Assembly (NCBI GenBank): GCA_041674705.1
Contig: JBAYVF010000004.1
Location: forward strand, 38,516-102,515
Reading direction: 5' to 3'
Source: Candidatus Omnitrophota bacterium
GTDB taxonomy: Bacteria > Omnitrophota > Omnitrophia > Omnitrophales > Aquincolibacteriaceae
DNA: 64,000 nt
A program made the translations under genes and the position numbers. Below, piece after piece: positions 7,261 through 47,573 of the stretch. A model generated the notes under the pieces. The model made no database searches. It had not been told where the DNA came from and saw nothing but the letters and a program-made list of their open reading frames with translations. Position 1 is the first letter of the stretch, and each line of letters begins with the position of its first letter.

Positions 7261-7418
7261 GGTGGCTCCTCGAATTTGTTGGGGGCTTTAGGAATTCCCT
7301 TCGATGGGTTCAATATAGGTCCGAAAAGCTGGCGAAGCAAGAGCCGATTTATTTTGGGGTTTTTCCGTAAAAAAGCTTTTTGGAAGGTGAAAAAGCGATA
7401 AGATATACAATATTCCTT

Positions 7419-8807: not shown

Positions 8808-8811
8808 CTCT

Positions 8812-11800
8812 ATGGCCACGCATCACTCGGACATCATTAGCGGGATCGTCAGTTACTTCGCCAAGTCCAAGATCACGCCTCTCATTATCGCAGCGTCGCT
8901 TATTATCGGCGTGTTTGCGGTCATCAATCTTCCCCGGGAAGAAGAGCCGCAGATCTCGGTGCCGATGTTTGATATTTTTGTCGCTTATCCGGGCGCAGAT
9001 TCCAAGGAGGTCGAGCAACGGATCGTGACCCTTGGAGAACGCAAGCTCTGGGAGATCCCGGGCGTGGAATACGTTTATTCTACGATCGAGCCGGAAGGAG
9101 CGCTGATCATTGTTCGGTTCAAGGTCGGGGAAGATGTCGAAAAGAGCCTGATCAAGCTTTACACCAAGGTCTATTCCAATCTCGATTTCCTGCCTTCTGA
9201 CGCAACGCAGCCCCTGATCAAAGTCCGTTCGATTGATGATGTGCCGATTCTGACCCTTACTTTCCATGGTAAAGATAAAGATCCTGTCGTGCTTCGCAGA
9301 ACCGTGGCAAATGTCCAGAACATCGTGAACGCGATCCCCGATGTTTCAGAAACCCGCATTACGGGTGGCCGCAAACGTCAGTTCCAGGTATTTTTTGATG
9401 AAGAAAAGCTTAAGGCCCGGCTCCTGAACCCGCTTGAGATCACGCAGATCATCCGCTCCGCGAACGTGAAACAAAGTGCCGGACATCTTGAAAGCGCGCC
9501 GGAACTTGAATCGGTGGAGGCAAATTCGTTTTTCCGCACAAAATCCGATCTTGAGAATCTCGTGGTCGGCGCGAGCGCGGGGAGCGTGGTGACGCTCAAA
9601 GACATCGCGAAAGTCGTGGACGGTCCGGATGAAGAAGAACGCGCGTCGGAAATTTTCTTTGGACCCGCATCGAAGGAAAAAGACAAAGGTCCGTTTGATG
9701 CCGTGACGCTTTCGATCTCAAAACGTAAGGGCGCGAACGCGGCCCATCTTTCCGAGGTGATCCTGCACGCGATTAAAGAGCTTCCGGAAACGACGCTTCC
9801 CAAAGATGTTGAAATGACCGTAACGCGCGATTACGGGGAGACCGCGAAAGAAAAATCCAACGAACTGCTTTTTCATATGGCGATCGCGATCTTCGGCGTG
9901 AGTGTTCTGATCGCCTGGGTGCTTGGCCTGCGCGAGTCCGGGGTGGTGGCGATCGCGATCCCGATGACCTTGGCGCTGACGCTTGCCACGTTCTATTTTC
10001 TTGGCTATACGCTGAATCGCATTACGCTTTTTGCGCTGATCTTTTCGATCGGGATCCTTGTGGATGACCCGATCGTGGATGTGGAAAATATCGTCCGGCA
10101 TCTCCGGCTTCCGGACAATAAAGGAAAATCCATTCTGGATATCACGATCGAAGCCGTGAATGAAGTCCGCAGTCCTTTGATCCTCGCGACGCTTACGGTG
10201 ATCGCAGCCATCCTGCCGATGGCTTTTGTAAGCGGACTTATGGGCCCCTACATGCGCCCCATTCCGATCGGCGCAAGCGCGGCGATGATGTTCTCGATGT
10301 TCGTGGCTTTTGTCGCGACTCCTTGGGCCGCATACCAGATTCTCGGGAGGGCGTTCGCTCAGGGGAAGCTCAAAGCCCACCACGAAGGAGAGAAAGAAGA
10401 TTTTCTGACGCATCTTTATCGCTCCTACATGAATCCGCTCATTTATAACGCGAAGATCCGGCAATGGTTCTTGATCGGTCTCGGAACCTTGCTTGCGCTT
10501 GCGGTTTTGCTTGTGCCTCTCAAGTTGGTTCGCATGAAAATGTTGCCGTTCGACAACAAGAATGAATTCCAGGTGGTGCTCAATATGCCCGAGGGGACAC
10601 CCGCGGCGAAGACTCAGGCTGTGATCACGGAGATCGCGGATTATCTCGTCACCACGCCGGAAGTCAAAGACATTGAGATGTATGTGGGCTCGGCAGCACC
10701 CTATAATTTCAACGGGCTTGTGCGTCATTACTTTCTTCGATCAAAACCTTTCCAGGCGGATCTTCAAGTGAATCTGGCAGGAAAACATCAGCGCAAACGC
10801 CAAAGCCATGATATCGCCAAAGCGGTACGCCCGAGGATCCATGAGATCGTGAAAAAACACGGCGGCCATGTTCAGGTTGCAGAAGTCCCTCCCGGCCCGC
10901 CTGTTCTTTCGACGCTCGTGCTTGAAATTTATGGACCCACGCTTGAGGGCCAAACAAAGCTTGCGAAACAGATCGAAGGATTGCTCGCTTCCAGCGAAGG
11001 CGTGACCGACATCGATACCTATATCCAGTCACCGGAAAAGCTCATGCGCCTCCGTGTGAATACGCAGAAAGCATCCTTGAATGGAATTCCGGTCGCGCAG
11101 ATCGCTGAAGTTATCACAACCGCAGTCGGGGGAAAGACCGTGGATCTGGCGCACCTTTCTGAAGAATACGAGCCGGTGGAGATCCTTTTGCGTCTGCCCA
11201 AGGAAAAGCGTGCGGGGATGGAGAGTGTTCTCAATATGACGCTTCTCTCCCGGTATGGGAACCCGATCCCGGTACGGGAACTTGTGGATATCGAAAAGGA
11301 CACCAAAGACCCCGCGATCTATCACAAGAACCTTATGCGGGTCTCATATGTGATCGCGGACGTGGCAGGGAAGTTTGAAAGCCCGGCGTATGCGATCCTG
11401 AAACTCAAAAAAGAGATCGCAAAGATGCCGGTGCCTGTTAATCAAGAGGGCCAGAAGACGCTCGACCAACTTTTTAACGGCCAGCCGCAAACGACGGATC
11501 GCTGGACCTTGAAGTGGGATGGAGAATGGCAGATCACGTACGAAGTATTCCGTGATCTCGGGATCGCGTTCGTCTTTGTGCTTCTTCTGATCTACGCGCT
11601 TGTGGTTGGGTGGTTCCAGTCGTTTAAAACGCCGTGGATCATCATGTTGCCGATTCCGCTCACGCTTGTGGGGATTTTACCTGCGCACTGGCTCGGCGGC
11701 GTGTTTTTTACTGCGACTTCCATGATCGGGATGATCGCGGGTGCCGGGATCGTGGTCCGCAATTCCATTATTCTCGTGGATTTTATCGAAATGAGACGTG

Positions 11801-12571: not shown

Positions 12572-12853
12572 ATGGAAATCAATATCGATAGAGTTGCGGA
12601 ACTTGCGCGGCTCAATCTTAAAGCCGAAGAAAAAAAGAAGCTCGAAAAAGACCTCGGGGCGATCCTCGACTACGTCAAAAAACTGGATAAGCTGGATACG
12701 TCCAAAGTCGAGCCCACGAGCCATGTCCTTAATATGGAGAACGTGTTCCGCCCTGATGAAGCCAAGTCTTCGGATGCCGCCTCAAAGGCCCTGGAACATG
12801 CCCCTCAGACCGAAGGCTCTTTCTTCAAAGTCCCCAAGATCGTGCAAAGATAA
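12572..12853 (+). CDS. gatC: Asp-tRNA(Asn)/Glu-tRNA(Gln) amidotransferase subunit C
   Basis: 93 aa with a typical GatC sequence (LARLNL..EE...L..IL.YV..L). Lies upstream of gatA. Confidence 0.9.
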   Translation: MEINIDRVAELARLNLKAEEKKKLEKDLGAILDYVKKLDKLDTSKVEPTSHVLNMENVFRPDEAKSSDAASKALEHAPQTEGSFFKVPKIVQR

Positions 12854-19516: not shown

Positions 19517-20398
19517 ATGACAACAGTGAACAAGCTTAAAATTGCATTACCCAAGGGCAGTCTCGAAGAAGCGACCTATAATCTCTTCAAGCGGGCCGGC
19601 TTCAAGATCAACGTTAACTCCCGTTCCTACATTCCTTCCATTGATGATCCCGAGATCGAAGTGGTCCTCTTCCGCCCCCAAGAGATGTCCCGTTATGTTG
19701 AAGACGGCATTGTGGATTGCGGCCTCACCGGGCATGACTGGATCGTGGAAAATGACTCCGATGTGGTCGAACTTTGCGAGCTTCAATATTCCAAGCGCAC
19801 CTCCAATCCTGTCCGCTGGGTTCTGGCCGTGCACGAATCGTCGCCCTTTAAAAGCGTCAAGGACCTGAATGGCAAAAAGATCGTGACCGAGCTCGTGGGT
19901 GTAACGAAGCGCTATCTTAAAAAGAACAAAGTGACCGCGGAAGTGGAATTCTCGTGGGGGGCCACGGAAGCCAAACCGCCGCGTCTTGCGGATGCCATCG
20001 TGGAAGCCACCGAGACCGGCTCCAGTCTTCGCGCGAATAAACTCAAGATCATTGACACCGTGATCGTTTCGATACCGAAGTTCATCGCAAATAAGAAAAG
20101 CGTGAAAGACTCCTGGAAAAAACACAAGATGGACAATCTGATCATGTTGCTTCAAGGCGCGATGCGTGCCCAGGAAAAGGTCGGCCTTAAGATGAATGTC
20201 GAGAAGAAGAACCTGCAAAAGATCCTGAGTCTTCTCCCGGCCATGAAAAAACCGACCATTGCGAATCTTACGGATAAGAACTGGCTGGATGTCGAGACCA
20301 TCATCGACGAGTCTGTGGTCCGTGAGTTGATCCCGGCGCTCAAGGCGGCCGGCGCCTCAGGCATCATCGAATATCCGCTCAATAAAGTTATTCCCTAA
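19517..20398 (+). CDS. hisG: ATP phosphoribosyltransferase, long form
   Basis: [10 protein letters not shown]...GLTGHD N-terminal domain plus C-terminal regulatory domain. 293 aa. Confidence 0.9.
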
Positions 20399-34240: not shown

Positions 34241-34753
34241 ATGAACCGTAAAATGATAGCAGGTTTTCTGGCGGCGTTGATGATGTTGGGCCTGAGCTTT
34301 CCGGCTTTCGCGGCGGAGATGAAGGTTGCCTATGTCGATGTGGGCGAGGTTTTTGACAATTACCAAAAGACCAAGGATCAGGATCTGGTGCTGAAGACCG
34401 CGGGAGAAGCCAAGGAAAAAGAACGTAATGAAATGGCGACCAAGATCCGCTCGATGGAAGATGAAATAGCCCTTCTCGCGGCGGATGCCCGCGCTGCCAA
34501 GCAGGAGCAATTGATCGAAAAGAAGCGTCAGCTTGAGGATTTTGATCGCAATGTGCGTCAGCAACTCGCAGAACAGCGCGATAAGGTGGTTCGCGAGATC
34601 TTCCAGGAGATCGATGTGATCGTTCAGGATCTTTCGGCCAAGGGCGGTTATGACATGATCTTCAATAAACGCGTGCTTCTTGCCCAGAAAAAGAATTTTG
34701 ACATTACGCCGCAAGTTTCTGCGGAGCTCGCGAAGAAATACAAAAAGGCTTAA
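34241..34753 (+). CDS. skp: OmpH/Skp periplasmic chaperone
   Basis: Signal peptide plus coiled-coil OmpH fold. Lies downstream of bamA. Confidence 0.8.
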   Translation: MNRKMIAGFLAALMMLGLSFPAFAAEMKVAYVDVGEVFDNYQKTKDQDLVLKTAGEAKEKERNEMATKIRSMEDEIALLAADARAAKQEQLIEKKRQLEDFDRNVRQQLAEQRDKVVREIFQEIDVIVQDLSAKGGYDMIFNKRVLLAQKKNFDITPQVSAELAKKYKKA

Positions 34754-34766
34754 AGCTTTAGGGATC

Positions 34767-36047
34767 ATGAAACAAAAGACGCTCAAAACCCAAGCTGTTT
34801 TCGAAGGGACGGGGCTCCATACCGGTCACAAGGTGACGGTATGCGTGCGTCCGGCTTCGGAGAATGCGGGCATTCTCTTTTGCCGTGTCGATCTGGCCCC
34901 GGACCTCAAGGTCCGGGCCTCGATCGAGAATGTCTGTTCCGACGAAGCTCGCCAGACCGCCATTGTGGTAGGCAGCGGTCGTGTCCGTACGATCGAGCAT
35001 CTCATGGCGGCTTTCCACGGGCTCGGGATCGATAACGCCTTAGTCGAGATCGACGGGGAAGAAGTGCCCGGGATGGACGGGAGCGCTCTGGAGTTTACGA
35101 AGGCCCTCATTGCCTCCGGTTTCGAGGAGCAGAACGCTCCGCGAAAGTTTCTTGAGATCAAAGAACCGGTGTATGTCGATCAAGGGGACCAGTCGATCGT
35201 GCTTTTGCCGGCCCCGACATTTTCGATCTCCTATATGTTGAGCTATCGCGATGCGAACCTTTTGGACCAGTACCTGTCGCTTCCGATCGTGCCGGAGATC
35301 TTTGAACGAGAGCTGGCGTCGGCTCGCACCTTTTGTCTTAAAAAAGAAGCCGAGCTCTTGCTGTCCCAGGGATTTGGCAAAGGGGCGAATCCTACCAACA
35401 CGCTTATTTTTGAAAAGAACAAACCCCTCCAGAACACTTTAAGGTTTGAAAACGAAGCGTGTCGCCATAAAATGATGGATATCCTGGGCGATCTGTTTTT
35501 ATGCGGAAAATTCATCCGCGGGCATGTGATCGCTTCCCGAAGTGGCCATGCCCTAAACGTCGAACTCGTGAGGAAACTGATGATGAACACTCCCGCTGAA
35601 CCCAAACCGCTCTCCAGGACGCTCAATGTGGAAGAGATCCAAAAGATCATCCCGCACCGCTACCCCTTTCTTTTTGTGGACCGGATCGAGAATTTTGAAC
35701 CGGGAACGCGTGCCACAGGTTTCAAACAGGTCACGATGAACGACTATTTTTTTCAGGGGCATTTCCCGGGTCATCCCGTGATGCCGGGGGTGTTGATCGT
35801 GGAAGCCATGGCGCAAGTCGGTGGCGTGATCATGCTGGGAGAGCCCGAGAATCGGGGCAAGATCGCCTACTTCATGAGCGTGGATGCCGTCAAGTGGCGC
35901 ACCCCGGTCCTTCCGGGAGATACGCTCCGGATGGAGGTCGAGGTTTTGAAGAAACGCGCCAAGTTTGGTCAATGTTCCGGCAAGGCTTATGTGGGTGATA
36001 AACTTGCATGCGAAGCGGATGTGAAATTCGCTGTGGTGGATGCGTGA
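34767..36047 (+). CDS. lpxC/fabZ: Bifunctional UDP-3-O-acyl-GlcNAc deacetylase / 3-hydroxyacyl-ACP dehydratase (LpxC-FabZ fusion)
   Basis: N-terminal LpxC (TLKTQAVFEGTGLHTG...HALNVEL). C-terminal FabZ hotdog (FQGHFPGHPVMPGVLIVEAMAQ). Start moved to MKQKTLK. Confidence 0.85.
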   Translation: MKQKTLKTQAVFEGTGLHTGHKVTVCVRPASENAGILFCRVDLAPDLKVRASIENVCSDEARQTAIVVGSGRVRTIEHLMAAFHGLGIDNALVEIDGEEVPGMDGSALEFTKALIASGFEEQNAPRKFLEIKEPVYVDQGDQSIVLLPAPTFSISYMLSYRDANLLDQYLSLPIVPEIFERELASARTFCLKKEAELLLSQGFGKGANPTNTLIFEKNKPLQNTLRFENEACRHKMMDILGDLFLCGKFIRGHVIASRSGHALNVELVRKLMMNTPAEPKPLSRTLNVEEIQKIIPHRYPFLFVDRIENFEPGTRATGFKQVTMNDYFFQGHFPGHPVMPGVLIVEAMAQVGGVIMLGEPENRGKIAYFMSVDAVKWRTPVLPGDTLRMEVEVLKKRAKFGQCSGKAYVGDKLACEADVKFAVVDA

Positions 36048-36814
36048 AGATTCATCCGACGGCGATCGTTCATCCGGACGCCATTTTGGGCGACGGGGTG
36101 GAGATCGGCCCTTGGGCGATCATTGCCGGGACGGTGAAGATCGGCGCGCGCACGAAGGTCGGGCCGCGCGTGACAATTGAAGGACACACCACGATCGGTG
36201 AAGATAATGAGATTTTTACCGGCGCGGTTGTTGGCAGCCTGACGCAGGACAAAAAAGCCGATGGTGGCGTGAGTTATCTGAAGATCGGCGACCGCAACAC
36301 GATCCGCGAATATGCGACCCTGAACCCCGGTACTTTAAATGGCACCGAAACCGTGGTCGGAAATGATAATCTTCTGATGGCCTACGCGCACGTGGCGCAT
36401 GATTGTATTATCCAAAATGGCGTAACCCTTGCCAATAACGCGACACTTGCGGGCCATGTGATCGTGGAGGATCAAGCGATCATCGGGGGGCTTTCCGCGG
36501 TCCATCAATTCGTCCGGATCGGAAAATTGTCGATCACGGGGGGATGCTCCAAAGTCGTGCAGGACATTCCTCCCTTTATGATGGTCGACGGCCATCCGGC
36601 ACATGCCTTTGGCATCAATGCCGTGGGGCTCGATCGCGCGGGATTTTCCAAGGAAGAAAAATCCGCCATCAAAAAGGCCTTCAAGATCATCTTCAAATCG
36701 GGCCTTATCTTAAAGAACGTTATCAAACAGATCCAGCAAGACATCCCCCTGAGTCCTTCCATTCAGACGATCCTCGCATTCCTGGAGACGTCCGAACGTG
36801 GCATTTGCGGATAA
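36044..36814 (+). CDS. lpxA: Acyl-ACP--UDP-N-acetylglucosamine O-acyltransferase
   Basis: GTG start overlapping the fabZ stop (GTGA). Hexapeptide repeats. (V)KIHPTAIVHPDAILGDGVEIGP. Confidence 0.85.
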   Translation: MKIHPTAIVHPDAILGDGVEIGPWAIIAGTVKIGARTKVGPRVTIEGHTTIGEDNEIFTGAVVGSLTQDKKADGGVSYLKIGDRNTIREYATLNPGTLNGTETVVGNDNLLMAYAHVAHDCIIQNGVTLANNATLAGHVIVEDQAIIGGLSAVHQFVRIGKLSITGGCSKVVQDIPPFMMVDGHPAHAFGINAVGLDRAGFSKEEKSAIKKAFKIIFKSGLILKNVIKQIQQDIPLSPSIQTILAFLETSERGICG

Positions 36815-36917
36815 GGTCCGCTTGAAGTCGGTATTTCGGGCCGTTCCCCCAGTGGTCGAATTCGCAGGGGATGAAGCCGATATCTCTTTCTGATATAATC
36901 TCTGGCGAGGTGAACTT

Positions 36918-37733
36918 ATGAAGACCATGGGCATTATCGCGGGCAACGGTCGTTTTCCCATTCTGGTGGCGGAAGAAGCCAAGCGGGCGGGATACCGGGT
37001 CGTGACCTGCGCCATTGAACAGGAAGCCGAACCGGCTCTGGAAAAACTTTCGGACGCTTTCTCGTGGGTCAAAGTGGGCGAGCTTAAAAAGCTGTCGAAA
37101 TTCCTCAAAGACGAAGGTGCTCACGAAGCCATCATGGCCGGCAAGATCGAGAAAGTGCGTTTCTTTAAGGAAAACGTCCGGTTCGATCTCGATATGATGG
37201 GAGTTCTTGTAAAGCTGAAGGACCACAAAGATGACTCCCTCCTCGGGGGTATTGCGGATTACCTCTTTAAAAAAGGCATCGTGCTCCAGGATTCAACCCT
37301 CCTTCTCAAAGATATGATGCCGGGCCCCGGCTTGCTTGGGAAAAGGAAACCCTCGAAAGCCGTTATGGACAATATTGATTTTGGCTTTGAAATGGCGCAA
37401 AAGATCTCGGGCGCGGACATCGGACAAACCGTGGTCGTGAAGAACAAGGCCGTACTCGCGGTCGAGGCCATTGAAGGCACCGACGAAGCGATACGCCGCG
37501 GCGGGGCGCTCGGGCGCGGTAAGATCGTTGTGGTGAAGATCGCCAAGCCAAATCAGGATATGCGTTTTGATGTGCCGGCGGTGGGCTTAAAGACCCTGGA
37601 GGGGTTGATCGAAGCGCAGGCTGTGGCTTTCGCATTTGAGGCCCATAAGACTCTTTTTATCGGCAAAGATATTTTTGTGGAGCAAGCCAATCGCGCGGGC
37701 ATCGTTCTTTACGGCGTGAGCGACCGGCCTTAA
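36918..37733 (+). CDS. lpxI: UDP-2,3-diacylglucosamine diphosphatase LpxI (DUF1009 family)
   Basis: About 270 aa with an N-terminus of LpxI/DUF1009 type (IAGNGRFP). Lies downstream of lpxA. Confidence 0.65.
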
Positions 37734-37746
37734 TGCTGGGGAAAAT

Positions 37747-39333
37747 ATGAGCAGTGAAAAAATAAAACCTACCGTAGGTTTGAAGCGTGAGATCCAGGAG
37801 CTCAGTGTGCTCTATGAGATCACCCGGCATATGACGGCCCCATTCCCGATCGAGGAGCGGATGAGGAAAGCGCTGGATGTGCTCCATGAAAAAATGGGCA
37901 TGCACCGCGGAACCTTGACGCTTCTGGATGCGGATGGTGAGAGCCTGACGATCGAGATCGCCCATGGCCTGGACGATCAGGCGAAAAAGAAAGGGCGCTA
38001 CAAGATCGGCGAAGGTATTACCGGAAAAGTCGTGGAGGCGGGAGAGCCGATCGCGGTGCCGAATATTGGGGAAGAACCGCTTTTTCTTAACCGCACCGGA
38101 GCCCGGAAAGATTTCCGGCGCAACCGGATCGCTTTCATCTGTGTCCCTATCAAGATCGACCAAGAGACCATTGGCGCGCTCAGCGTGGACCGCCTTTTCG
38201 AAGGCAATATTTCTCTGGACGAAGATCTAAGGCTTCTGACCATTATCAGCTCCATCCTTGCGCAAACCGTTGCCAGTTACCGACTTCGCGAAAAGGAAAA
38301 AGCGAAGCTCCAGTTCGAGAATGTCGAATTGAAGCGCGAACTTGCCAAGAAATTCCATCCAGCTAACATCATCGGGAAAAGCAAGCGCATGGAAGAAGTT
38401 TATGAGGCCATCGATATGGTGAGCCGGACGCGCTCGACCGTGCTGCTCCGGGGTGAAACAGGGACCGGAAAAGAATTGGTGGCGCATGCGATCCATTATG
38501 GAAGTTTCCGCTCGAAAGGGCCGTTCGTGAAGGTGTCCTGCGCGGCATTACCGGAAACTCTCCTCGAGAGCGAGCTCTTTGGGTATGAAAAGGGCGCTTT
38601 TACCGGGGCGGTCGCAAGAAAACTGGGGCGTTTTGAGCTGGCCGACGGCGGGACTCTTTTCCTCGATGAGATCGGGGATATCTCAGCCTCAATGCAGGTT
38701 AAGCTTTTGCGGGCACTCCAGGAGCGGGAGTTCGAGCGCGTGGGCGGGACCCAGACGATTCGCGTGGATGTGCGGGTTATCGCGGCGACGAACCGTGATC
38801 TTGAAAAAGCGATCCAGGAAAAGCAGTTCCGGGAAGATCTCTATTACCGGCTCAATGTAGTGCCGATCCTTTTGCCCTCTTTAAGGGAAAGGCGGGAAGA
38901 TATTCCGCTTCTTGTCGCGCATTTCTTGAAAAGGGCAGATCTTGAAAACGGGAAAAAAGTGAAGTATGTTTCCGACGATGCCATGAAGTATTTGATGGGT
39001 TATTCTTGGCCCGGCAATATCCGGGAGCTTGAGAACGCGATCGAACGGGCTGTGATCCATTGCAAGACCGATACGCTTGAAACCGATCTTTTTCCGATAC
39101 CGGGATCCAAAGGCCATCCGGTTATGATCCAGCCCAAGCCTTTTGAATCCTCGATCGGGGAAAAGGGTGAAGATGTTCCAGGGGATCTTCCGAGCGCTGT
39201 TGAAAAGCTTGAAAAGAAGTTGATCCAGGAGGCTCTTCGCTCCAATGCCGGGAATCAGCGCAAGACGGCCAAGGCGCTTGGAGTGACGGAGCGTATCCTT
39301 GGGTACAAGATCAAACAGTATGGTCTGAAGTAG
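37747..39333 (+). CDS. Sigma54-dependent transcriptional activator with N-terminal GAF domain and C-terminal Fis-type HTH (NifA/NtrC-like, no receiver domain)
   Basis: AAA+ sigma54-interaction domain ([29 protein letters not shown]-equivalent). C-terminal [22 protein letters not shown]. Confidence 0.85.
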
Positions 39334-39340
39334 CGGGTTC

Positions 39341-39383
39341 CTACAAAATTGTAGTTATTTCCCCCAAGACAACAATTTTGTGG
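39341..39383. promoter_or_regulatory. Two inverted copies of the motif CYACAAAATTGTWG (CTACAAAATTGTAG and CAACAATTTTGTGG), a putative upstream activator site for glnN
   Basis: Located at 39341-39354 and 39370-39383, 50-95 bp upstream of the sigma54 -24 element. Confidence 0.45.
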
Positions 39384-39433
39384 TTTTATATCTCAGATGG
39401 AGTGAATCCCTAGGGGTGAAATAGCTAAGAAAT

Positions 39434-39449
39434 TGGCATAGAAATTGCT
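39434..39449 (+). promoter_or_regulatory. Sigma54 promoter (TGGCAT-N5-TTGCT) for glutamine synthetase
   Basis: GG-N10-GC spacing is exact. Lies 80 nt upstream of the ATG. Confidence 0.6.
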
Positions 39450-39528
39450 AATTAGGAATGGGGTTCTTTTACGTCTTCATGAAAAGAAGCTGAATTAACA
39501 AGCTATTCAAACAAAAAAGGGGGATGTT

Positions 39529-41670
39529 ATGTGCGAAGATAAGGCCTGTCAGTGCAGTTCTAAAAATGTGGATGTGCCGAAGATTTTTGGAAGTAACGTT
39601 TTTAATGATCGGACCATGAGAGAACGTCTCCCCAAAGAGACCTATAAAGCTCTCAAGAAAACGATCCAGCAAGGACTTCCGCTTTCGCCCGAGGTGGCCA
39701 ATGTGGTTGCCAATGCGATGAAGGATTGGGCTATTGAAAAAGGTGCGACGCATTACACCCATTGGTTTCAGCCGCTCACTGGCCGTACCGCGGAAAAACA
39801 TGATTCTTTTATCTCTCCGACCGACGATGGTAGCGTGATCATGGAGTTCTCCGGGAAGCAATTGGCTCAAGGTGAACCAGATGCATCGTCTTTTCCGAGC
39901 GGGGGTCTTCGCTCCACATTTGAAGCGCGTGGCTATACGGCGTGGGATTGCACCTCTCCCGCATTCCTCAAAGAGGATGCTTCGGGGAATGTGACTCTTG
40001 CCATTCCGACGGCTTTTTGTTCTTATACGAGCGAAGCGCTTGATAAAAAAACGCCGCTTCTTCGTTCCATGGAAGCAGTTTCCAAACAGGCCATTCGCGT
40101 TTTAAAAGCCCTCGGCAACAAAACCGCAAAGCGCGTGACCTCGACGGTCGGTCCTGAGCAGGAATATTTCCTGATCGACAAGACCTGCTATGAAAAACGT
40201 CTCGATCTGATCGTTTCCGGGAGGACGCTTTTCGGCGCCCCTTCGCCCAAGGGACAGGAGTTGGAAGATCAGTATTTTGGCGCGATCAAAGATCGTATTG
40301 CCGATTTCATGAGGGATCTGGATATCGAACTTTGGAAGATGGGGATCTCTTCCAAGACCAAGCACAACGAAGTGGCGCCCGCGCAGTATGAAATGGCGCC
40401 GATCTATTCCACGACCAACATCGCGGCGGATCACAATCAACTTGTGATGGAAACCATGCAGAAAGTGGCGCTTCGCCACGGCCTTGTGTGCCTCCTTCAT
40501 GAGAAGCCGTTTGCGGGCGTGAATGGTTCTGGCAAGCATAACAACTGGTCGCTTTCGACCGACGATGGACAAAATCTTCTTGAGCCGGGGAAGACGCCTT
40601 CTGAGAACGAGCAGTTCTTGATCTTTGTAAGCGCCCTTCTCATGGCAGTGGATCGTCATGCTGACAAGCTTCGCGCGAGTTGCGGCAATCCCGGGAATGA
40701 TCTACGGCTCGGCGCGAACGAAGCTCCTCCTGCCATTATTTCGGTTTTTATGGGGGAAGAGTTCACGGAGATTTTGGAAGGTATCGCTAAGGGGAAAAAA
40801 GTGGAGTCCCGTGGCCAGAGTTTTCTTCATATCGGGGTCGATGCCTTACCTCCGCTCCCGAAGGACAATACCGATCGTAACCGCACATCGCCTTTCGCGT
40901 TCACGGGGAACAAGTTCGAATTCCGCATGGTTGGCTCCTCGGCCTCCATTTCGGGACCGAATATCGTGATCAATACTATTGTTGCGGAAGCGTTGGATGA
41001 GATTGCGACGCGTCTTGAAAAGGCCGGCAAGAACGGTCTGAACAAAGAAGCAACCGCAATCGTTCGCGACGCAGTGAAAAAGCATGGGCGTATCATTTTT
41101 AACGGGAACAACTACTCCGATGAGTGGGTTGCAGAAGCCAAGAAGCGCGGTCTGCCGAACATCAAGACCGGCATCGAAGCTCTGGGCTACATGGCGACGC
41201 CTCAGGCAGAGAAGCTCTTCGACAAGTACCAGGTGCTTTCTCCCAAGGAGCTCCATTCCCGTTATGAGATCTACTTGGAAGCCTATGTAAAGCATGTGAA
41301 TATCGAAGCTCAGGCATCCGTCCAGATGGTCAAGCGGCTCTTTATGCCTGCAGGGATAAAGTTTGCCGCCGAGCTCGCAGGGGGGATCGGAGCTTTAAAA
41401 TCAGCTGCGGCTTCGGTGACGGTCCAGAAAGCATTGCTCACAACTGTGAGCGGCCTTTTATCAACCGCTTCGGAAAAGCTTGCGGTACTTGAAGCTTCAA
41501 TCGATAAGGCGCACCATGTATCGGATGTGGCCAAACGTGCCGAGGCATTCCGAGACAAAGTCGTTGTGGTGATGAATGCTCTTCGCAAGGACATCGATGC
41601 GCTTGAAGGCGTGACTCCGACTGAAATTTGGCCGGTTCCCACTTACGCGGAGATGCTCTTCAAGTTGTAA
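39529..41670 (+). CDS. glnN: Glutamine synthetase type III
   Basis: 713 aa, the size typical of GSIII. The catalytic region shows the Gln-synt_C hallmark residues of a type III GS. Confidence 0.8.
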
Positions 41671-41848
41671 GGCGCGATTTTAAGCGCACTTATCTGGTTC
41701 GACATAGCTTACCACCTTGAGTGAAGTCGAAGGGCTGAGCAAGCCCGAAGGGCGCGCCGAAGGATATCCTTCGACTCCTTCGCAAAAGGCTCACTCGCTC
41801 AGGATGATTAGGGTTGGTGTTACCAACCCTAAACAATCAGGGCAAGGC

Positions 41849-41888
41849 AGGCGGGTTTCCTCATCCCCTGAGGGACCCGCCTTTTTTT
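41849..41888 (+). terminator. Rho-independent terminator of glnN
   Basis: AGGCGGGT...ACCCGCC stem followed by TTTTTTT. It is preceded by three further hairpins (41745-41795, and TAGGGTTGGT-gtt-ACCAACCCTA at about 41805-41828). Confidence 0.6.
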
Positions 41889-41962
41889 ATTGAGACTGTC
41901 CTGATGTTCTCGCAATAAATTCCCGCAAAAATACACACATCTTTCGGCCCATTCACTCGATT

Positions 41963-41978
41963 TGGCATGGCTCTTGCA
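41963..41978 (+). promoter_or_regulatory. Sigma54 promoter (TGGCAT-N5-TTGCA) for amt1-glnK1
   Basis: Exact -24/-12 consensus and spacing. Confidence 0.6.
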
Positions 41979-42080
41979 CCTATATGATGGCTCTAGAGTA
42001 CGAGTGGTTTTTATAGGCATAAAAATACAAAAATGTGCGACAAATTCGTGGAGAATCAAACCTTTGAAAGGGAGGAGCAA

Positions 42081-43412
42081 ATGATGAAAAAACTAAAGAA
42101 GTGGTTTTTAGGAATAACCGGGTTTATGGCTCTCATGGGAATTTCAAGGCTGGCCATGGCGGCGGACGGGGTCGTTCCGGCCATTAATACGGGCGATACG
42201 GCGTGGGTGCTGATGTCTGCGGCGTTCGTTTTCCTGATGACCCCGGGCCTAGCATTCTTCTACGGCGGCCTAGTTCGCAAAAAGAACATGCTTTCGGTGC
42301 TCATGCAATGTTTTATGCTGATGTGCATCATCACGCTTCAATGGGTGATCTTTGGCTACAGCCTTTCGTTCGGGCCGGATATCAAAGGAATGATCGGAAG
42401 CTTGAGCTGGGCGGGCCTGCACGGCGTCGGGATAACGCCGTTCGCGGATTATTCAGCCACGGTTCCGCATCAAGCCTTCATGATCTATCAAGCGATGTTT
42501 GCCATTATCACGCCGGGACTGATCCTGGGCGCTTTCGCGGAGCGTATGAAATTTTCCGCATTTGTTGTCTTCTCGCTCCTCTGGGCGACCTTTGTTTATG
42601 ATCCCGTTTGCCACTGGGTGTGGGGCGTGGGCGGTTTCTTGAGAAACATGGGAGCGCTTGATTTTGCCGGAGGCACAGTCGTTCACATTAATGCGGGTGT
42701 TGCGGCTCTTGCCTGCGCGCTAGTGCTAGGGAAAAGAAAAGGTTATCCCAGCCATATGTCACCTCCGCACAATCTTCCGTTTGCTGTGCTCGGCGCGGGG
42801 TTGTTGTGGTTCGGCTGGTTCGGGTTCAATGGAGGAAGTGCCCTGGGAGCTAACGGTCTTGCCACAAGCGCCCTTGTGGTGACCCATGTGGCCGCCGCTG
42901 CCGCAGGTCTGACCTGGTCATTGATCGAATGGAAGATTAGCTCGAAGCCGACCATGCTTGGCATGATCACGGGAGCTGTTGCTGGGCTTGTTGCTATTAC
43001 GCCGGCCGCGGGATTTGTCGGCCCCATGGATGCTATTTGGATCGGGATTGGGGTTTCCGTGATTTGTTATTTCTTTGTTGCTGTGGTGAAAAGCAAGTTT
43101 GGCTATGACGATTCTCTGGATGCTTTTGGTGTGCATGGGGTTGGCGGGATCTGGGGAGCTTTGGCCACGGGACTCTGGGCCACAAAGGAGATTAATCCGG
43201 CCGGGAATAATGGGCTTTTTTACGGGAATCCTGGACTCCTGTGGATTCAGCTCAAGGCGGTAGTGATTACCATTGTTTATTCGTTCATCGTTTCGTTTGT
43301 TCTTCTGAAGATCGTAGACGTTCTGCTGGGTCTACGCGTTTCGGAGGACGAAGAGCGCATCGGGCTGGACCTCACGCAACATCGTGAATCTGGCTACACC
43401 ATCTTAGATTAA
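42081..43412 (+). CDS. amt: Ammonium transporter (copy 1)
   Basis: Amt/MEP signature D(F)AGG.VVH. Signal peptide. 11 TM helices. Start moved to the ATG after the GGGAGG Shine-Dalgarno. Confidence 0.9.
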   Translation: MMKKLKKWFLGITGFMALMGISRLAMAADGVVPAINTGDTAWVLMSAAFVFLMTPGLAFFYGGLVRKKNMLSVLMQCFMLMCIITLQWVIFGYSLSFGPDIKGMIGSLSWAGLHGVGITPFADYSATVPHQAFMIYQAMFAIITPGLILGAFAERMKFSAFVVFSLLWATFVYDPVCHWVWGVGGFLRNMGALDFAGGTVVHINAGVAALACALVLGKRKGYPSHMSPPHNLPFAVLGAGLLWFGWFGFNGGSALGANGLATSALVVTHVAAAAAGLTWSLIEWKISSKPTMLGMITGAVAGLVAITPAAGFVGPMDAIWIGIGVSVICYFFVAVVKSKFGYDDSLDAFGVHGVGGIWGALATGLWATKEINPAGNNGLFYGNPGLLWIQLKAVVITIVYSFIVSFVLLKIVDVLLGLRVSEDEERIGLDLTQHRESGYTILD

Positions 43413-43424
43413 AGGAGGAATGCC

Positions 43425-43766
43425 ATGAAATATATTATCGCCGTGATCCAACCGGACCGGGTGGATGAAGTGCTCCGGATCCTCGAAGAAAAAGAGATCC
43501 ATCTTGTGACCGTAACTAATGTTCTTGGCCGCGGCCGGCAAAAGGGGATCTCCGAGGTTTACCGGGGCCATAAAGAGGGGGGGCGGCTGCTTCGAAAAGT
43601 GAAGCTCGAAATCGCGGTCAATGAAGCCTTTGTGAAGGCGACGGTCGATGCGATCAAAGAAGGTTCGAGGACGGGGCATATCGGGGACGGCAAGATCTTT
43701 GTGCTCGATCTCAAGGAATGCTTTCGAATTCGCACCGGGGAGATCGGCGAAGTCGCAATCGGATAA
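43425..43766 (+). CDS. glnK: Nitrogen regulatory protein P-II (copy 1)
   Basis: MKYIIAVIQPDR...GRGRQKG...EVYRG T-loop. Linked to amt. Confidence 0.9.
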   Translation: MKYIIAVIQPDRVDEVLRILEEKEIHLVTVTNVLGRGRQKGISEVYRGHKEGGRLLRKVKLEIAVNEAFVKATVDAIKEGSRTGHIGDGKIFVLDLKECFRIRTGEIGEVAIG

Positions 43767-43767
43767 A

Positions 43768-43826
43768 ACGCGGGGAACGGCGAGCGAGAAATATTAGTTT
43801 TTGCGTTCGGCGTTCCCCGTTTCCAG
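43768..43826 (+). terminator. Imperfect long hairpin (CGGGGAACGGCG.../...CGTTCGGCGTTCCCCG) after glnK1: possible terminator or enhancer site
   Basis: About 17-bp stem with 2 mismatches and an AT-rich loop. A short T-run follows. Confidence 0.4.
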
Positions 43827-43840
43827 GTTTTTCAACAACT

Positions 43841-43856
43841 TGGCACATCTCTTGCA
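43841..43856 (+). promoter_or_regulatory. Sigma54 promoter (TGGCAC-N5-TTGCA) for amt2-glnK2
   Basis: Perfect consensus. Confidence 0.65.
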
Positions 43857-43984
43857 CCATACCGTGAGAAGCTCTATCTCTGCATTCGGCTCAGAATAGA
43901 GATTTTTTTGCTACCTTAAAGTCTACAAAAATGTAGGACGAATTCGTCGCGAATAGGATCTGTCGACAAAAATGGAGGCGTTTG

Positions 43985-45313
43985 ATGCGAAAAAAAAGTA
44001 AGCTTTTTTGGGAAATTATTCTTTTCTTTGTTTTTCTGGGTTTATCGAAAATGGTATGGGCTGCAGACCCAGCGGTCCCGCCCGTTAGCGGCGGAGATAT
44101 CTCGTGGGTTCTTGTTTCCGCGGCTCTGGTATTTCTGATGACTCCCGGTTTGGCTTTTTTCTACGGCGGGCTCGTTCGTAAGAAGAATATGCTCTCGGTC
44201 CTGATGCAGTGCTTTATTTTGATATGCCTGATCACGCTTCAGTGGGTGCTTTTCGGCTATAGTTTGGCATTTGGTCCGGATGTGAAGGGGCTGATCGGCA
44301 ACTTGAGCTGGGCAGGGCTTCAGGGCGTGGGTCTGGATCCTTTTGCGGCTTATTCATCTACAATCCCGCATCAGCTTTTTATGATCTATCAAGCGATGTT
44401 CGCGATTATCACGCCGGGCTTGATCCTGGGGGCCTTCGCAGAGCGCATGAAATTCTCCGCATTTTGTATCTTCTCGCTTCTTTGGGCCACATTCGTTTAC
44501 GATCCCGTTTGCCACTGGATGTGGGGTGCGGGTGGTTTCCTGAGAGATATGGGGGCTCTTGATTTTGCGGGTGGGGTTGTGGTTCATATCAACGCCGGCA
44601 TTGCGGCTTTGGTTTGCGCGCTTGTGCTCGGTAAAAGAAAAGGCTATCCCAGTCATATGTCGCCTCCCCACAACCTGCCCTTTGCGGTTTTAGGTGCCGG
44701 GCTTCTTTGGTTCGGTTGGTTTGGGTTTAATGGAGGAAGTGCGTTAGGCGCCAATCGACTCGCCGTGAGCGCCATGGTCGTTTCTCACGTTGCCGGGGCA
44801 GCTGCCGGGCTGACTTGGGCGCTCCTGGAATGGAAGTTCAACTCTAAACCTACCATGCTCGGTATGATTACCGGCGCCGTCGCGGGACTTGCGACGATCA
44901 CCCCGGCAGCAGGCTTTGTGGGGCCGATCGATGCGATCTGGATAGGGGTTTTGGCTTCACTCGTCTGTTTCTTTTGTGTGGCGGTGGTTAAAGCCAAGTT
45001 CACTTACGATGATTCACTGGATGCTTTCGGAGTGCACGGGGTTGGCGGGATCGTGGGGACTTTGGCCACGGGACTCTGGGCGACAAAGGCCATCAATCCA
45101 GCCGGGAATAACGGACTTTTTTACGGAAATCCGGGTCTGTTTCTAATTCAGCTGAAGGCTGTGGGGATCACCATTGTTTATTCATTTGTCGTCTCCTGGG
45201 TCCTTCTGAAGCTTGTGGATGTTTTTATAGGTCTGCGTGTTTCTGAGGACGGCGAACGCATCGGGCTGGATCTCACGCAGCATCGTGAATCTGCCTACAC
45301 CATGTTGGATTAA
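43985..45313 (+). CDS. amt: Ammonium transporter (copy 2)
   Basis: Paralogue of copy 1, about 75% identical. GGAGG Shine-Dalgarno before ATG 43985. Confidence 0.9.
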   Translation: MRKKSKLFWEIILFFVFLGLSKMVWAADPAVPPVSGGDISWVLVSAALVFLMTPGLAFFYGGLVRKKNMLSVLMQCFILICLITLQWVLFGYSLAFGPDVKGLIGNLSWAGLQGVGLDPFAAYSSTIPHQLFMIYQAMFAIITPGLILGAFAERMKFSAFCIFSLLWATFVYDPVCHWMWGAGGFLRDMGALDFAGGVVVHINAGIAALVCALVLGKRKGYPSHMSPPHNLPFAVLGAGLLWFGWFGFNGGSALGANRLAVSAMVVSHVAGAAAGLTWALLEWKFNSKPTMLGMITGAVAGLATITPAAGFVGPIDAIWIGVLASLVCFFCVAVVKAKFTYDDSLDAFGVHGVGGIVGTLATGLWATKAINPAGNNGLFYGNPGLFLIQLKAVGITIVYSFVVSWVLLKLVDVFIGLRVSEDGERIGLDLTQHRESAYTMLD

Positions 45314-45416
45314 CCCCGTTAGAGGTTCAGATGTCTCATAACGGACGTTCTAGAAAGTATGCGAATCAATACATCAAAAACACATCCCGTGAAAGTGGGT
45401 TAGATCTCTAACGGGG
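45314..45416 (+). promoter_or_regulatory. Second copy of the CCCCGTTAGAG...CTCTAACGGGG bracketed leader, between amt2 and glnK2
   Basis: Arms at 45314-45324 (starting right after the amt2 stop) and 45406-45416. The interior differs from the gatC copy. GGAGG Shine-Dalgarno and the glnK2 ATG follow. Confidence 0.5.
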
Positions 45417-45430
45417 TAAAGGAGGAACCT

Positions 45431-45772
45431 ATGCGCTACATCATTGCGATCATTCAACCAGATCGATTGGACGAAGTTTTGAGAATCTTGGAAGAAAAAG
45501 AGATTCATCTCGTGACGGTCACAAGCGTTCTGGGGCGCGGACGTCAAAAGGGGATTTCGGAAGTTTATCGCGGTCATAAGGAAAATGGACGTCTCTTGAA
45601 AAAAATAAAACTGGAGATCGCCGTGAATGAAGAGTTCGTGAAAGCTACCGTCGACGCCATTATCCAAGGTGCTCGAACTAATCACATCGGGGATGGAAAG
45701 ATCTTCGTTCTTGATCTAAAAGAATGTTTTCGTATCCGTACCGGTGAGACCGGGAAAATAGCGATCGGTTAA
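45431..45772 (+). CDS. glnK: Nitrogen regulatory protein P-II (copy 2)
   Basis: Near-identical to copy 1. Confidence 0.9.
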   Translation: MRYIIAIIQPDRLDEVLRILEEKEIHLVTVTSVLGRGRQKGISEVYRGHKENGRLLKKIKLEIAVNEEFVKATVDAIIQGARTNHIGDGKIFVLDLKECFRIRTGETGKIAIG

Positions 45773-45790
45773 ACCCAACTAAAAAGAGTA

Positions 45791-45854
45791 TCCCGGCCCA
45801 AAATCGCCTCCCCTGGCGATTGAGAAGTACCCCTTCTCGGGGCCGGGATTTTTC
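45791..45854 (+). terminator. Repeated 64-nt compound terminator element (copy 1)
   Basis: TCCCGGCCC...nested AATCGCC-tcccctg-GCGATT...GGGGCCGGGA followed by TTTTT. Near-identical to 47610-47674. Confidence 0.55.
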
Positions 45855-45976
45855 TTGCCCTGTTTTTTTGGATGTCGGGTGTTGGATCATTCCTAAAAAC
45901 TACAAAATTGTAATACCTCAAAATGTTTCTGCCTTCTCAAAATAAAATCCTACTGTAAGCCCGATTTTTCCTAACT

Positions 45977-45992
45977 TGGCATGATATATGCA
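45977..45992 (+). promoter_or_regulatory. Sigma54-type promoter (TGGCAT-N5-ATGCA) upstream of the Fis-like gene and porin; CTACAAAATTGTAA motif at 45900-45913
   Basis: GG-N10-GC spacing conserved. The motif lies about 65 bp upstream. Confidence 0.5.
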
Positions 45993-46035
45993 CTGTTTCC
46001 AATGGGTTCATTAACAGCCAATCGAAATTCAAGGT

Positions 46036-46242
46036 TTGAAGCAAATGGAGAATTTTAAACTGGATCATGGAGCTCTTCCAAATGAAGGGAGGCTTCTAAA
46101 TGCTGTTCATGAGCTTGAAAGGCAGATGATTGAGAAGGCCATGGCGCGCTCCGGGGGAAACCAACGCGTGGCCTCGGAAATCCTGGGGATCACGGAGCGT
46201 ATGCTGGGATATCGCTTAAAACATTACGGAATGAATTTTTAG
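46036..46242 (+). CDS. Stand-alone Fis-family HTH DNA-binding protein (68 aa)
   Basis: C-terminal NQRVASEILGITERMLGYRLKHYGM resembles the Fis/NtrC C-terminal HTH. Confidence 0.6.
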   Translation: MKQMENFKLDHGALPNEGRLLNAVHELERQMIEKAMARSGGNQRVASEILGITERMLGYRLKHYGMNF

Positions 46243-46274
46243 GAAGCATTTTAGAAATACAACAACTGGAGGAA

Positions 46275-47573
46275 GTGATGGAAAAAATATTAAAAAGGTT
46301 TTTAAGTGTGTGCCTGATCGGAATGTGTTTTTGCCCCGGGGTGGTTTTTGGCGAAAGCCTTGAGACCGCGCCCGGGGTCCAGGCAACCGAGATCGCTCCG
46401 GCGCCGGTAGCCTCTCCGGACCGAGGGCTCTTGATGAGCCTTCTGGATTGGGCGGGGATCGGACAGACCCTGGACAAAGCCGGCATCAAGATCTACGGCT
46501 ATTCCGAAGCCGGGATCATGTTCGATCCCACGGCGGGCCGGAACGGGGCGGGTCCGACTTTTCTGGGATTCAATTATTTCAAAAACACCCCGATGCTCAA
46601 CAAGATCAGTTTGAACGTTGAGCGCACGGTCGATCCGTCGAAGAAGGCGTTTGACGTGGGTTTCCGTCTCGAGGGCATCTGGGGAACGGACGCGAAGTTC
46701 ATCCACGCGAACGGTATCGCGGACACACAAACGGGTCGCTATCAGATGGATCCTTTGCAGGCCTATGTCGACGTCACGACGCCTTACCTTCCGATTCGGA
46801 TCCGCGCCGGAAAATGGATCGAACTGGCCGGCTTTGAACATTTCAGCGCCAATATCTACGGTGCGTTCGGTGATCCTGCCAGGGCGTTTTATTCTTACAG
46901 TTATCAGTTCCTCTACGCGGAGCCTGGGACCCAAACGGGTGTTTTGGGGACTTATGTCCTGAATCCGCAATGGTCTTTTGATCTTGGGATCACGGATGGC
47001 TGGAATCAATGTACCCGGGATGCCAACCATTACGCGGACATCCTGGGGCGTATTACGTTTACGCCCAATGATAAGACCGCGTTTATTTTCACAATGACCG
47101 AAGGCCCGGAGTATCCGACGGGGGTAGGGCGTGGATTGCCTCCCGGTGACAATAAAGACTGGTGGACGGCCATGGATTTCGTAGCCACCCGCAAGGTGAC
47201 CGAAAAATTGAGTTTGGGTTTGGGAGGCGATTTTGTGAATGCTCCGCACATTCCCGGATTGTCCAAAGGCGCCAAACAATGGGGAGGTGTGGCCGGGTAT
47301 GCCAGCTACGCTCTTAACAAGTTTGTCACGGCGAATTCGCGACTCGAGTGGTATATCGACGCGGCCAACGGGTTTTCGAACGGAGCGTCCACGCGCGCCA
47401 ATTACTATGAAGCGACCTTGGGCCCGGCTATCAAGCCCTTCGCGAACAAGAAGTTCTTGTCTCAGGTGATCGTGAGACCGGAACTTCGCTTTGATTTTTC
47501 AAATCAGCCGGTTTTTGCCAAAGGCGACAAGATGCAGGTGTCGTTAAGCGCGGATATTCTGTATACCTTTTAG
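46275..47573 (+). CDS. Outer-membrane beta-barrel porin (sigma54/nitrogen-regulon associated)
   Basis: Signal peptide (MMEKILKRFLSVCLIGMCFCPGVVFG). Alternating amphipathic beta strands. C-terminal ...ADILYTF with terminal aromatic residue. Confidence 0.65.
   Translation: MMEKILKRFLSVCLIGMCFCPGVVFGESLETAPGVQATEIAPAPVASPDRGLLMSLLDWAGIGQTLDKAGIKIYGYSEAGIMFDPTAGRNGAGPTFLGFNYFKNTPMLNKISLNVERTVDPSKKAFDVGFRLEGIWGTDAKFIHANGIADTQTGRYQMDPLQAYVDVTTPYLPIRIRAGKWIELAGFEHFSANIYGAFGDPARAFYSYSYQFLYAEPGTQTGVLGTYVLNPQWSFDLGITDGWNQCTRDANHYADILGRITFTPNDKTAFIFTMTEGPEYPTGVGRGLPPGDNKDWWTAMDFVATRKVTEKLSLGLGGDFVNAPHIPGLSKGAKQWGGVAGYASYALNKFVTANSRLEWYIDAANGFSNGASTRANYYEATLGPAIKPFANKKFLSQVIVRPELRFDFSNQPVFAKGDKMQVSLSADILYTF

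Follow-up and report, generated by a model that had tools for sequence, protein, structure and literature searches.

Here, we describe a short palindromic sequence, hereafter called the box, which recurs at four predicted sigma-54 promoters of a group of nitrogen genes in a 64,000-nucleotide stretch of DNA from a Candidatus Omnitrophota bacterium (assembly GCA_041674705.1, contig JBAYVF010000004.1, positions 38,516 to 102,515 of the forward strand). The whole of this stretch is referred to below as the window, and positions are counted from its first letter. From 31.7 to 52 kb the window carries a run of genes, all on the plus strand: bamA, ompH, an lpxC-fabZ fusion, lpxA, lpxI, the gene of a predicted sigma-54 activator, glnN, two amt-PII operons, the gene of a small HTH_8 protein, a BBP2 porin gene, carA and carB. 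The activator gene starts 13 bp past lpxI and ends eight bases ahead of the first box, and its translation contains both the Walker A and the GAFTGA motif. Coordinates of the genes, promoters and boxes are collected in Table 1.

The box and the four sigma-54 promoters

The window was searched with the sigma-54 promoter pattern TGGCAY-N5-TTGCW, and four intergenic matches were found, at 39434, 41963, 43841 and 45977. The remaining three sigma-54-like matches (26777, 53580 and 57928) each carry a mismatch; those at 57928 (in a GFO_IDH_MocA gene) and 53580 (within long open reading frames) were dismissed as coding sequence.

The box is a 14-bp motif, cTACA-N4-TGTAg, which is itself palindromic. 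Matches with up to 3 mismatches number 12 in the window against 3.3 expected, and none of 100 shuffled sequences reached 12. To avoid circularity, a position matrix was trained on 20 sites taken from relatives only. When the whole 64-kb window was ranked with this matrix, the top four places went to 39341, 45900, 43923 and 39370, and ranks 7-9 to 42025, 42038 and 43964; seven of the top nine matches lie in the intergenic regions of the four nitrogen units, 1,089 bp in all or 1.7% of the window. Matches of at least 10.9 bits number 7 in these regions, compared with a mean of 0.09 in dinucleotide shuffles of the same AT-rich regions, and none of the 2000 shuffles contained 7. Outside these regions, 62,950 positions hold 2 such matches, both weaker and both in coding genes (an amidase gene at 13784 and a PALP enzyme gene at 62269), so that within this one 64-kb window the motif is enriched over non-promoter sequence. 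We conclude that the repeated palindrome is genuine and occurs at these promoters far more often than expected by chance.

All motif copies listed in the original prediction are present in the sequence, one of them a single base further on than first given (43923-43936 instead of 43922-43935), and the distances hold as well: 51-93 bp upstream of the glnN promoter, 64 bp upstream of the porin promoter, and downstream of both amt promoters. The glnN copies had been described as an inverted pair. Two boxes are indeed there, 29 bp apart, but their orientation has no meaning in a motif that is itself a palindrome.

Table 1. Genes, sigma-54 promoters and boxes of the locus (positions in the window; box centres are given relative to the predicted transcription start; rank is that of the relatives-only matrix in the window)
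Feature	Positions	Strand	Sequence	Box centre	Rank	Remarks
Activator gene	37747..39333	+				One-component sigma-54 enhancer-binding protein; GAF, AAA+ (GAFTGA), C-terminal HTH_8 (Pfam, translation)
Box G1	39341-39354		CTACAAAATTGTAG	about -112.5 (glnN)	1	Reference, 0 mismatches
Box G2	39370-39383		CAACAATTTTGTGG on + strand, CCACAAAATTGTTG on - strand	about -83.5	4	2 mismatches to CTACAAAATTGTAG
glnN promoter	39434..39449	+	TGGCATAGAAATTGCT			Pattern match; conserved in L081-L085
glnN	39529..41670	+				Type III glutamine synthetase (Pfam GSIII_N, Gln-synt_C, Gln-synt_C-ter)
amt1-PII promoter	41963..41978	+	TGGCATGGCTCTTGCA			Core invariant across nine aligned amt leaders
Leader box A1a	42025-42038		ATACAAAAATGTGC	about +42.5	7	More than 3 mismatches to CTACAAAATTGTAG
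Leader box A1b	42038..42051		CGACAAATTCGTGG	about +55.5	8	Contains GACAAATTCGT (42039-42049)
amt1-PII unit	42081..43766	+				amt1 42081-43412, P-II gene 43425-43766 (NCBIfam amt, P-II)
amt2-PII promoter	43841..43856	+	TGGCACATCTCTTGCA			Pattern match; amt leader alignment
Leader box A2a	43923-43936		CTACAAAAATGTAG	about +62.5	3	1 mismatch to CTACAAAATTGTAG
Leader box A2b	43936..43949		GGACGAATTCGTCG	about +75.5	20	Degenerate, 7.3 bits; contains GACGAATTCGT (43937-43947)
Third leader box	43964-43977		CGACAAAAATGGAG		9	Weak; adjoins amt2 ribosome-binding site; known from the window alone
amt2-PII unit	43985..45772	+				amt2 43985 to 45313, P-II gene 45431-45772 (open reading frames); paralogous to amt1-PII
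Box P1	45900-45913		CTACAAAATTGTAA	about -96.5 (third-type promoter)	2	1 mismatch to CTACAAAATTGTAG
Third-type promoter	45977..45992	+	-12 element TATATGC			Drives small HTH gene and porin gene
Stand-alone HTH_8 protein gene	46045..46242	+				65 aa (Pfam HTH_8)
BBP2 (OmpL-like) porin gene	46275..47573	+				Last gene of the unit of the third-type promoter (Pfam BBP2)

For a phylogenetic footprint we used eight syntenic Candidatus Omnitrophota loci (L081-L088), which were fetched via activator homologues of 64-88% identity, and the box positions proved to be conserved among them. The glnN pair is found in all six genomes that have glnN at this place (the window and L081-L085), with one box at about -112 (±1; -118.5 in L081) and the other at about -84 (±1.5); in L081-L085 the distal box ranges from -111.5 to -118.5 and the proximal one from -82.5 to -85.5. 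Ahead of the third-type promoter a box lies at -77 to -97 in the window, in L085 (-77.5) and in the locus L089 (-96.5). At the amt genes, nine of nine leaders from six genomes have their boxes between +32 and +78, on the 3' side of the promoter. When these nine leaders are aligned, the sole invariant columns are the promoter core and ACAA..TGT, plus two isolated positions beside the ribosome-binding site. The positions of the leader boxes seem to step by roughly 10-11 bp (32.5, ~43, ~55, ~64 and ~76), to which little weight is given because the sites are related by descent.

The GACRAATTCGT palindrome that had been noted after each amt copy is present in both leaders. It is better read, however, as a degenerate box that follows the first at a distance of 13 bp than as a separate element, since L081 holds GGACAAATTTGTAA (16.5 bits) at the position of A1b; L082 holds GGACGAATTTGTTG (10.2 bits) at +77.5, the equivalent of A2b. 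Symmetric changes, e.g., TGACA..TGTCA, are also seen in the upstream copies, as would be expected of a DNA palindrome bound by a dimer.

The TATATGC variant of the -12 element, in place of TTGCA, also occurs in L085 (TGGCACGATATATGC) and L089 (TGGCACGGTATATGC). It is kept ahead of amt3 or HTH-porin units (window 45977-45992; L085 18063; L089 2178), and promoters of this type always carry upstream boxes and never leader boxes.

The adjacent activator as candidate binder

Sigma-54 promoters need an enhancer-binding protein, and the adjacent activator with its HTH_8 domain and GAFTGA motif is the best candidate for binding the boxes. Orthologues of this protein within Candidatus Omnitrophota show 60-92% identity. 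The link between box and activator was assessed in 80 genome loci recovered with the activator protein, where a strong box was one of at least 13 bits and the zone examined was that within 450 bp of the activator gene. Strong boxes lie by the activator gene in 11 of the 26 loci with a full-length, GAF-covering match (20 boxes in 22.9 kb, often in pairs 29-30 bp apart), compared with none of the 54 loci of paralogous activators (0 in 44.8 kb); the background elsewhere in those loci is 20 boxes in 1.165 Mb, or about 0.02 per kb. The box-positive loci come from Acidobacteriota, Desulfovibrio, Hydrogenothermaceae (Aquificota) and Bacteroidales. Where they were checked, the neighbouring genes preceded by boxes are those of Amt for L004 and L009 (Acidobacteriota), of Amt together with P-II for L040 (Bacteroidales), and an operon for nitrite/sulfite reductase for L014 (Hydrogenothermaceae). 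In the last of these, a metagenome-assembled genome, the perfect adjoining boxes TTACAAAATTGTAA and TTACAAAAATGTAA (12632-12659 and 13511) precede a siroheme-type methylase gene and the nitrite/sulfite reductase gene, near the activator homologue, which hints that the regulon in Aquificota includes nitrite assimilation. The homologues in Acidobacteriota, Desulfovibrio and Aquificota have boxes directly 5' of their own gene, and this suggests autoregulation there, unlike in Omnitrophota, whose activator gene is without an upstream box.

A system of this kind has been predicted before. By comparative genomics only, Kazakov et al. (2015, BMC Genomics 16:919, PMC4641369) reconstructed in silico the regulon of DVU1949 in Desulfovibrio vulgaris Hildenborough and other Desulfovibrionales. 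DVU1949 is described there as a single-component activator, with a regulon labelled 'nitrogen metabolism and transport' (including DVU1231-1233, DVU1258, DVU3392 and its own operon), and the listed 16-bp sites include ATTACAAAATTGTAAT and TCTACATTTTTGTAAG (PMC4641369). From 100 of the published boxes we derived the consensus tTtACAwwwwTGTaAa, and the Omnitrophota matrix gives 8.5 bits or more to 67% of these 100, compared with 0.5% of shuffled sequences. The best Desulfovibrio matches of the Omnitrophota activator (L013 and L015) are full length at 41-43% identity, and their DNA-binding domain is nearly identical to that of the published DVU1949. The Omnitrophota activator and DVU1949 are both one-component sigma-54 activators with AAA+ and HTH_8 domains and no receiver domain, and they have the DNA-binding helix LG.T.R..GY+I+ in common; both are associated with a box core ACA-N4-TGT with a T/A-rich spacer and with predicted nitrogen targets, which here are glnN, the two amt-PII operons and the porin unit, each behind a sigma-54 promoter. 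The differences are that the outer flanks of the box are C/G here and T/A in Desulfovibrio, that autoregulation is predicted for the Desulfovibrio gene whereas the activator gene here adjoins lpxI with no box upstream, and that neither boxes in amt leaders nor a stand-alone DNA-binding paralogue has been described there; both systems are known from sequence prediction. Thus, the Omnitrophota box seems to be the family box of a previously predicted clade of DVU1949-type regulators. Another GAF activator of D. vulgaris, DVU0569, was rejected as the homologue, as its published box is of the TGG..CCA type, and its DNA-binding domain is different and matches L017.

Taken together, the conserved positions of the boxes, their exclusive association with full-length activators and the identity of their core with that of DVU1949 support the original view that they are enhancer-binding-protein sites for the four sigma-54 promoters. 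We consider it likely that the box is the recognition site of the activator's C-terminal HTH_8 domain, and that boxes and promoters together make up a nitrogen-assimilation regulon of glnN, two amt-PII operons and the small-HTH-porin unit.

The homologues of the activator (P0001-P0120) are publicly named 'nif-specific transcriptional activator NifA' or 'VnfA'. The source of these names is that the NCBIfam NifA model TIGR01817 is marginally passed (538.7 bits at a cut-off of 528.85, i.e., by ~10 bits). The GAF-AAA+-HTH_8 architecture is indeed that of NifA. However, the box here is ACA-N4-TGT, and the targets are glnN, amt-PII and the porin gene, not nif genes. The NifA site TGT-N10-ACA has seven matches in the window, all outside the four regulatory regions and in a number not above chance expectation; no nif genes were seen in the examined region of the window or in the eight syntenic loci; and the cysteine-rich interdomain linker of rhizobial NifA is not visible in the activator translation. 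The name 'NifA' is thus probably an over-annotation. Identity with NtrC was rejected as well, given the GAF N-terminus, the lack of a Response_reg match and a score of 351.6 with TIGR01818 against a cut-off of 558.6. At the E. coli glnAp2 promoter, NtrC binds a pair of palindromic dimer sites separated by about three helical turns and located roughly 100 bp upstream. The system described here resembles this arrangement in being a nitrogen regulon on sigma-54 promoters with an upstream pair of boxes, here 29 bp apart; it differs in having a GAF sensor instead of a phosphorylated receiver, no adjoining ntrB-like kinase and another box sequence.

Downstream boxes, the small HTH_8 protein and rival readings

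The small protein is 46% identical (78% positives) to residues 479-528 of the activator, which are its last 50. Once its own orthologues are set aside, nothing in the fetched loci matches it better than the DNA-binding domains of this activator clade. It belongs to a family of 75 clusters of short stand-alone HTH_8 proteins of 56-94 aa, and an identical (100%) copy is present at NCBI from Candidatus Omnitrophota (P0121). In all five loci examined the gene order is P-II, HTH_8, BBP2 porin (including the window, 46045-46242; L082, 20139-20378; L085, ~19908-20112, as an uncalled open reading frame; and L089, 4003-4227). The protein resembles a paralogous copy of the activator's DNA-binding domain that stands on its own and has been kept within the same regulon, and it probably reads the same box, as a second reader. 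Fis is likewise a small stand-alone HTH_8 protein homologous to the DNA-binding domain of an activator, and Morett and Bork are said to have proposed in 1998 that it derives from NtrC. The protein described here differs in sitting in the regulon, between P-II and porin genes, and in having this activator clade as its nearest kin among the fetched loci; with the NCBIfam Fis model NF001659 it scores 27.1 bits, far below the cut-off of 99.

All mechanistic steps past the sequence association are inferred, and they could run as follows. Dimers of the DNA-binding domain would occupy the boxes, at glnN the two boxes at -112 and -84, and would nucleate the AAA+ hexamer. The hexamer would then reach the closed complex of the sigma-54 holoenzyme via a DNA loop and open it with ATP, while the GAF domain, if it works as in NifA-type proteins, may make this opening depend on nitrogen status as signalled by 2-oxoglutarate and/or P-II. 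The amt leader boxes would act as enhancers from downstream, as for the FlbD ftr elements and FlrC, and the small HTH_8 protein, made from a box-controlled promoter, could modulate the response in a feedback or architectural role.

All nine amt leaders keep their boxes downstream of the promoter; the placement is genuine and conserved. The original prediction had suggested that it might serve repression or looping, and of the two, looping is favoured. Most of the amt promoters examined (amt1 and amt2 of the window, and those of L081, L082 and L084) have no upstream box, and their upstream side is occupied by the terminator of the preceding gene. In addition, the leader boxes lie ~60-95 bp from the -24/-12 element, a distance equal to that of the upstream boxes. 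Precedents are also known: Correa and Klose reportedly described in 2005 FlrC sites downstream of a sigma-54 promoter in Vibrio cholerae, and the ftr elements of Caulobacter FlbD are activator sites downstream of a sigma-54 promoter, to judge from two titles cited in PMC3096577 (Gober & Shapiro 1992; Mullin & Newton 1993). The likeness lies in the centres of the amt boxes at +32 to +78 from the predicted starts; the difference is that FlbD and FlrC serve flagellar regulons and have receiver domains, whereas here a nitrogen regulon would be concerned, with downstream sites only at amt and a downstream function that can be argued by analogy. On these four grounds, we favour activation by looping from downstream as the most economical reading, over damping or repression.

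Several points speak against this picture and have to be set beside it. Elongating polymerase has to displace any protein that sits on a leader box, which makes a damping or repressive role conceivable, and the paired leader boxes, 13 bp apart, face different sides of the helix, unlike the upstream pairs at 29-30 bp. All box positions are relative to transcription starts that were predicted by way of the -24/-12 consensus. The orthology with DVU1949 rests on best matches of 41-43% identity and on the similarity of the DNA-binding domains, not on a tree. Of the 26 loci with full-length homologues, 15 have no strong box beside the gene, some of them being other GAF activators, e.g., the DVU0569-like L017, and our literature searches found no experimental work on DVU1949, on binding by this clade or on nitrogen regulation in Omnitrophota, the in-silico reconstruction being the sole paper retrieved in which DVU1949 appears.

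The main rival reading concerns the sign of the leader boxes. They could be negative, with inactive activator or the HTH_8 protein holding amt-PII expression down as a roadblock or 'governor', while only the upstream boxes activate. The boxes do lie between promoter and ribosome-binding site in nine of nine amt leaders, and the small protein has both the recognition helix of the activator and a box-controlled promoter. Low-affinity NtrC 'governor' sites have been described at E. coli glnAp2, which counts for a negative role, as does the fact that FlbD both activates and represses via ftr, as the title of a paper by Benson et al. (1994; cited in PMC3096577) states. On the other hand, amt promoters without an upstream box would then be left with no enhancer at all; a sigma-54 promoter is silent in any case until an activator acts on it, which leaves little for a repressor to do; and leader boxes persist in L081, L084 and L086, all without the small protein. 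Moreover, a scan of the leaders for sigma-70 promoters found none, and the boxes are therefore not obvious operators over a second promoter. We regard the negative role as rather unlikely. Should the leader boxes instead act as RNA, in the form of small hairpins in the 5' untranslated region that control stability or translation of amt, then the point in favour would be the amt2 copy, which together with its neighbour can form two adjoining hairpins (-8.4 kcal/mol, z = -2.4, for a 35-nt piece). However, the z-scores of the whole leaders, -0.54 and +0.18, are those of sequences no stabler than their shuffles, the hairpin is missing from the predicted fold of the amt1 copy, and a scan of 39200-46400 against Rfam at E up to 1 returned no RNA family. 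On these grounds the reading of the leaders as RNA elements was rejected. The same box also stands upstream of promoters, outside the regulated transcript, where its symmetric changes fit a dimer-binding DNA palindrome, and we hold an RNA role to be the least probable of the readings weighed here.

The remaining two rivals concern the identity of the binder. Activator and Fis-like protein had both been proposed as candidates, and both are reasonable: the latter has a complete HTH_8 domain, belongs to a conserved family and is located in the regulon. However, it is absent from five box-bearing Omnitrophota loci (L081, L083, L084, L086 and L088) and, within 10-kb flanks, from the Acidobacteriota, Bacteroidales and Desulfovibrio loci. 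Since the five Omnitrophota loci keep their boxes, the constant partner of the boxes is the activator, whose gene they track; without an AAA+ domain, furthermore, the small protein cannot activate sigma-54. That the stand-alone protein is the primary binder instead of the activator is thus very improbable in our judgement. The boxes might also be bound by an unrelated nitrogen regulator of Crp, MerR or GlnR type encoded elsewhere, with the activator using other sites or none. Our view covers 64 kb of the genome, so that other regulators could not be listed, and the motif is a generic AT-rich palindrome. We nevertheless take such a regulator to be highly improbable, because the boxes co-localise with the activator clade across phyla, including directly 5' of the activator gene, and because boxes lie within about 120 bp of all four sigma-54 promoters, which showed no other element in common.

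Surroundings of the proposed regulon and significance

In the eight Omnitrophota loci the order lpxC-fabZ (fused), lpxA, lpxI and then the activator gene is kept in 8 of 8 (window 34680-39333; L081-L088, ~7000-11600), and the linkage of lpx genes and activator persists in L087, where the nitrogen genes do not adjoin. For the genes equivalent to amt2-PII, Pfam Ammonium_transp and P-II were called in L082 and L085. On the 3' side of glnN lies a conserved non-coding stretch of ~220 nt (window 41671-41890; L081 13847-14030; L082 13964-14145; its 3' ends in L083-L085). At its end lies a terminator, flanked on the 5' side by a sequence, AGGGCAAGGCAGGCGGG, that is near-invariant in six genomes, and in L084 a unit of ~80 nt starting with AGGGCAAGGCAG is repeated twice ahead of this terminator. 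No Rfam match was found for the stretch, which may be a mere terminator, or else a 3' untranslated region element or a small RNA. The spacer between amt2 and its P-II gene (45314-45430) measures 117 bp, versus 12 bp in amt1-PII, and in its fold CCCCGUUAGAGGUUC/AGAUCUCUAACGGGG close a long stem (-37.2 kcal/mol, z = -2.3).

While the kind of system is already known, its box is here extended to Omnitrophota and three more phyla, and the conserved placement in amt leaders and the free paralogue of the DNA-binding domain within the regulon are new. A bolder proposal, which we find doubtful, is that the Omnitrophota nitrogen regulon would combine two features undescribed for nitrogen control: obligatory leader-embedded enhancers at amt, and a regulon-encoded free activator DNA-binding domain that competes for or co-occupies the boxes and so provides built-in feedback. 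The small protein would then represent a second independent birth of a Fis-like protein from an activator, beside its parent.

For the uncultivated Omnitrophota, the analysis provides a concrete nitrogen-control circuit, consisting of an activator, a box, four promoters and their targets. The 'NifA'-named proteins of this phylum are more likely to be general regulators of nitrogen assimilation, and this matters for metagenome screens for nitrogen fixation. The downstream placement at amt and the free paralogue offer handles on enhancer geometry and on feedback at sigma-54 promoters. Finally, a box that was formerly predicted for Desulfovibrionales only is now extended to at least four more phyla, which suggests an old and widespread alternative to NtrBC.

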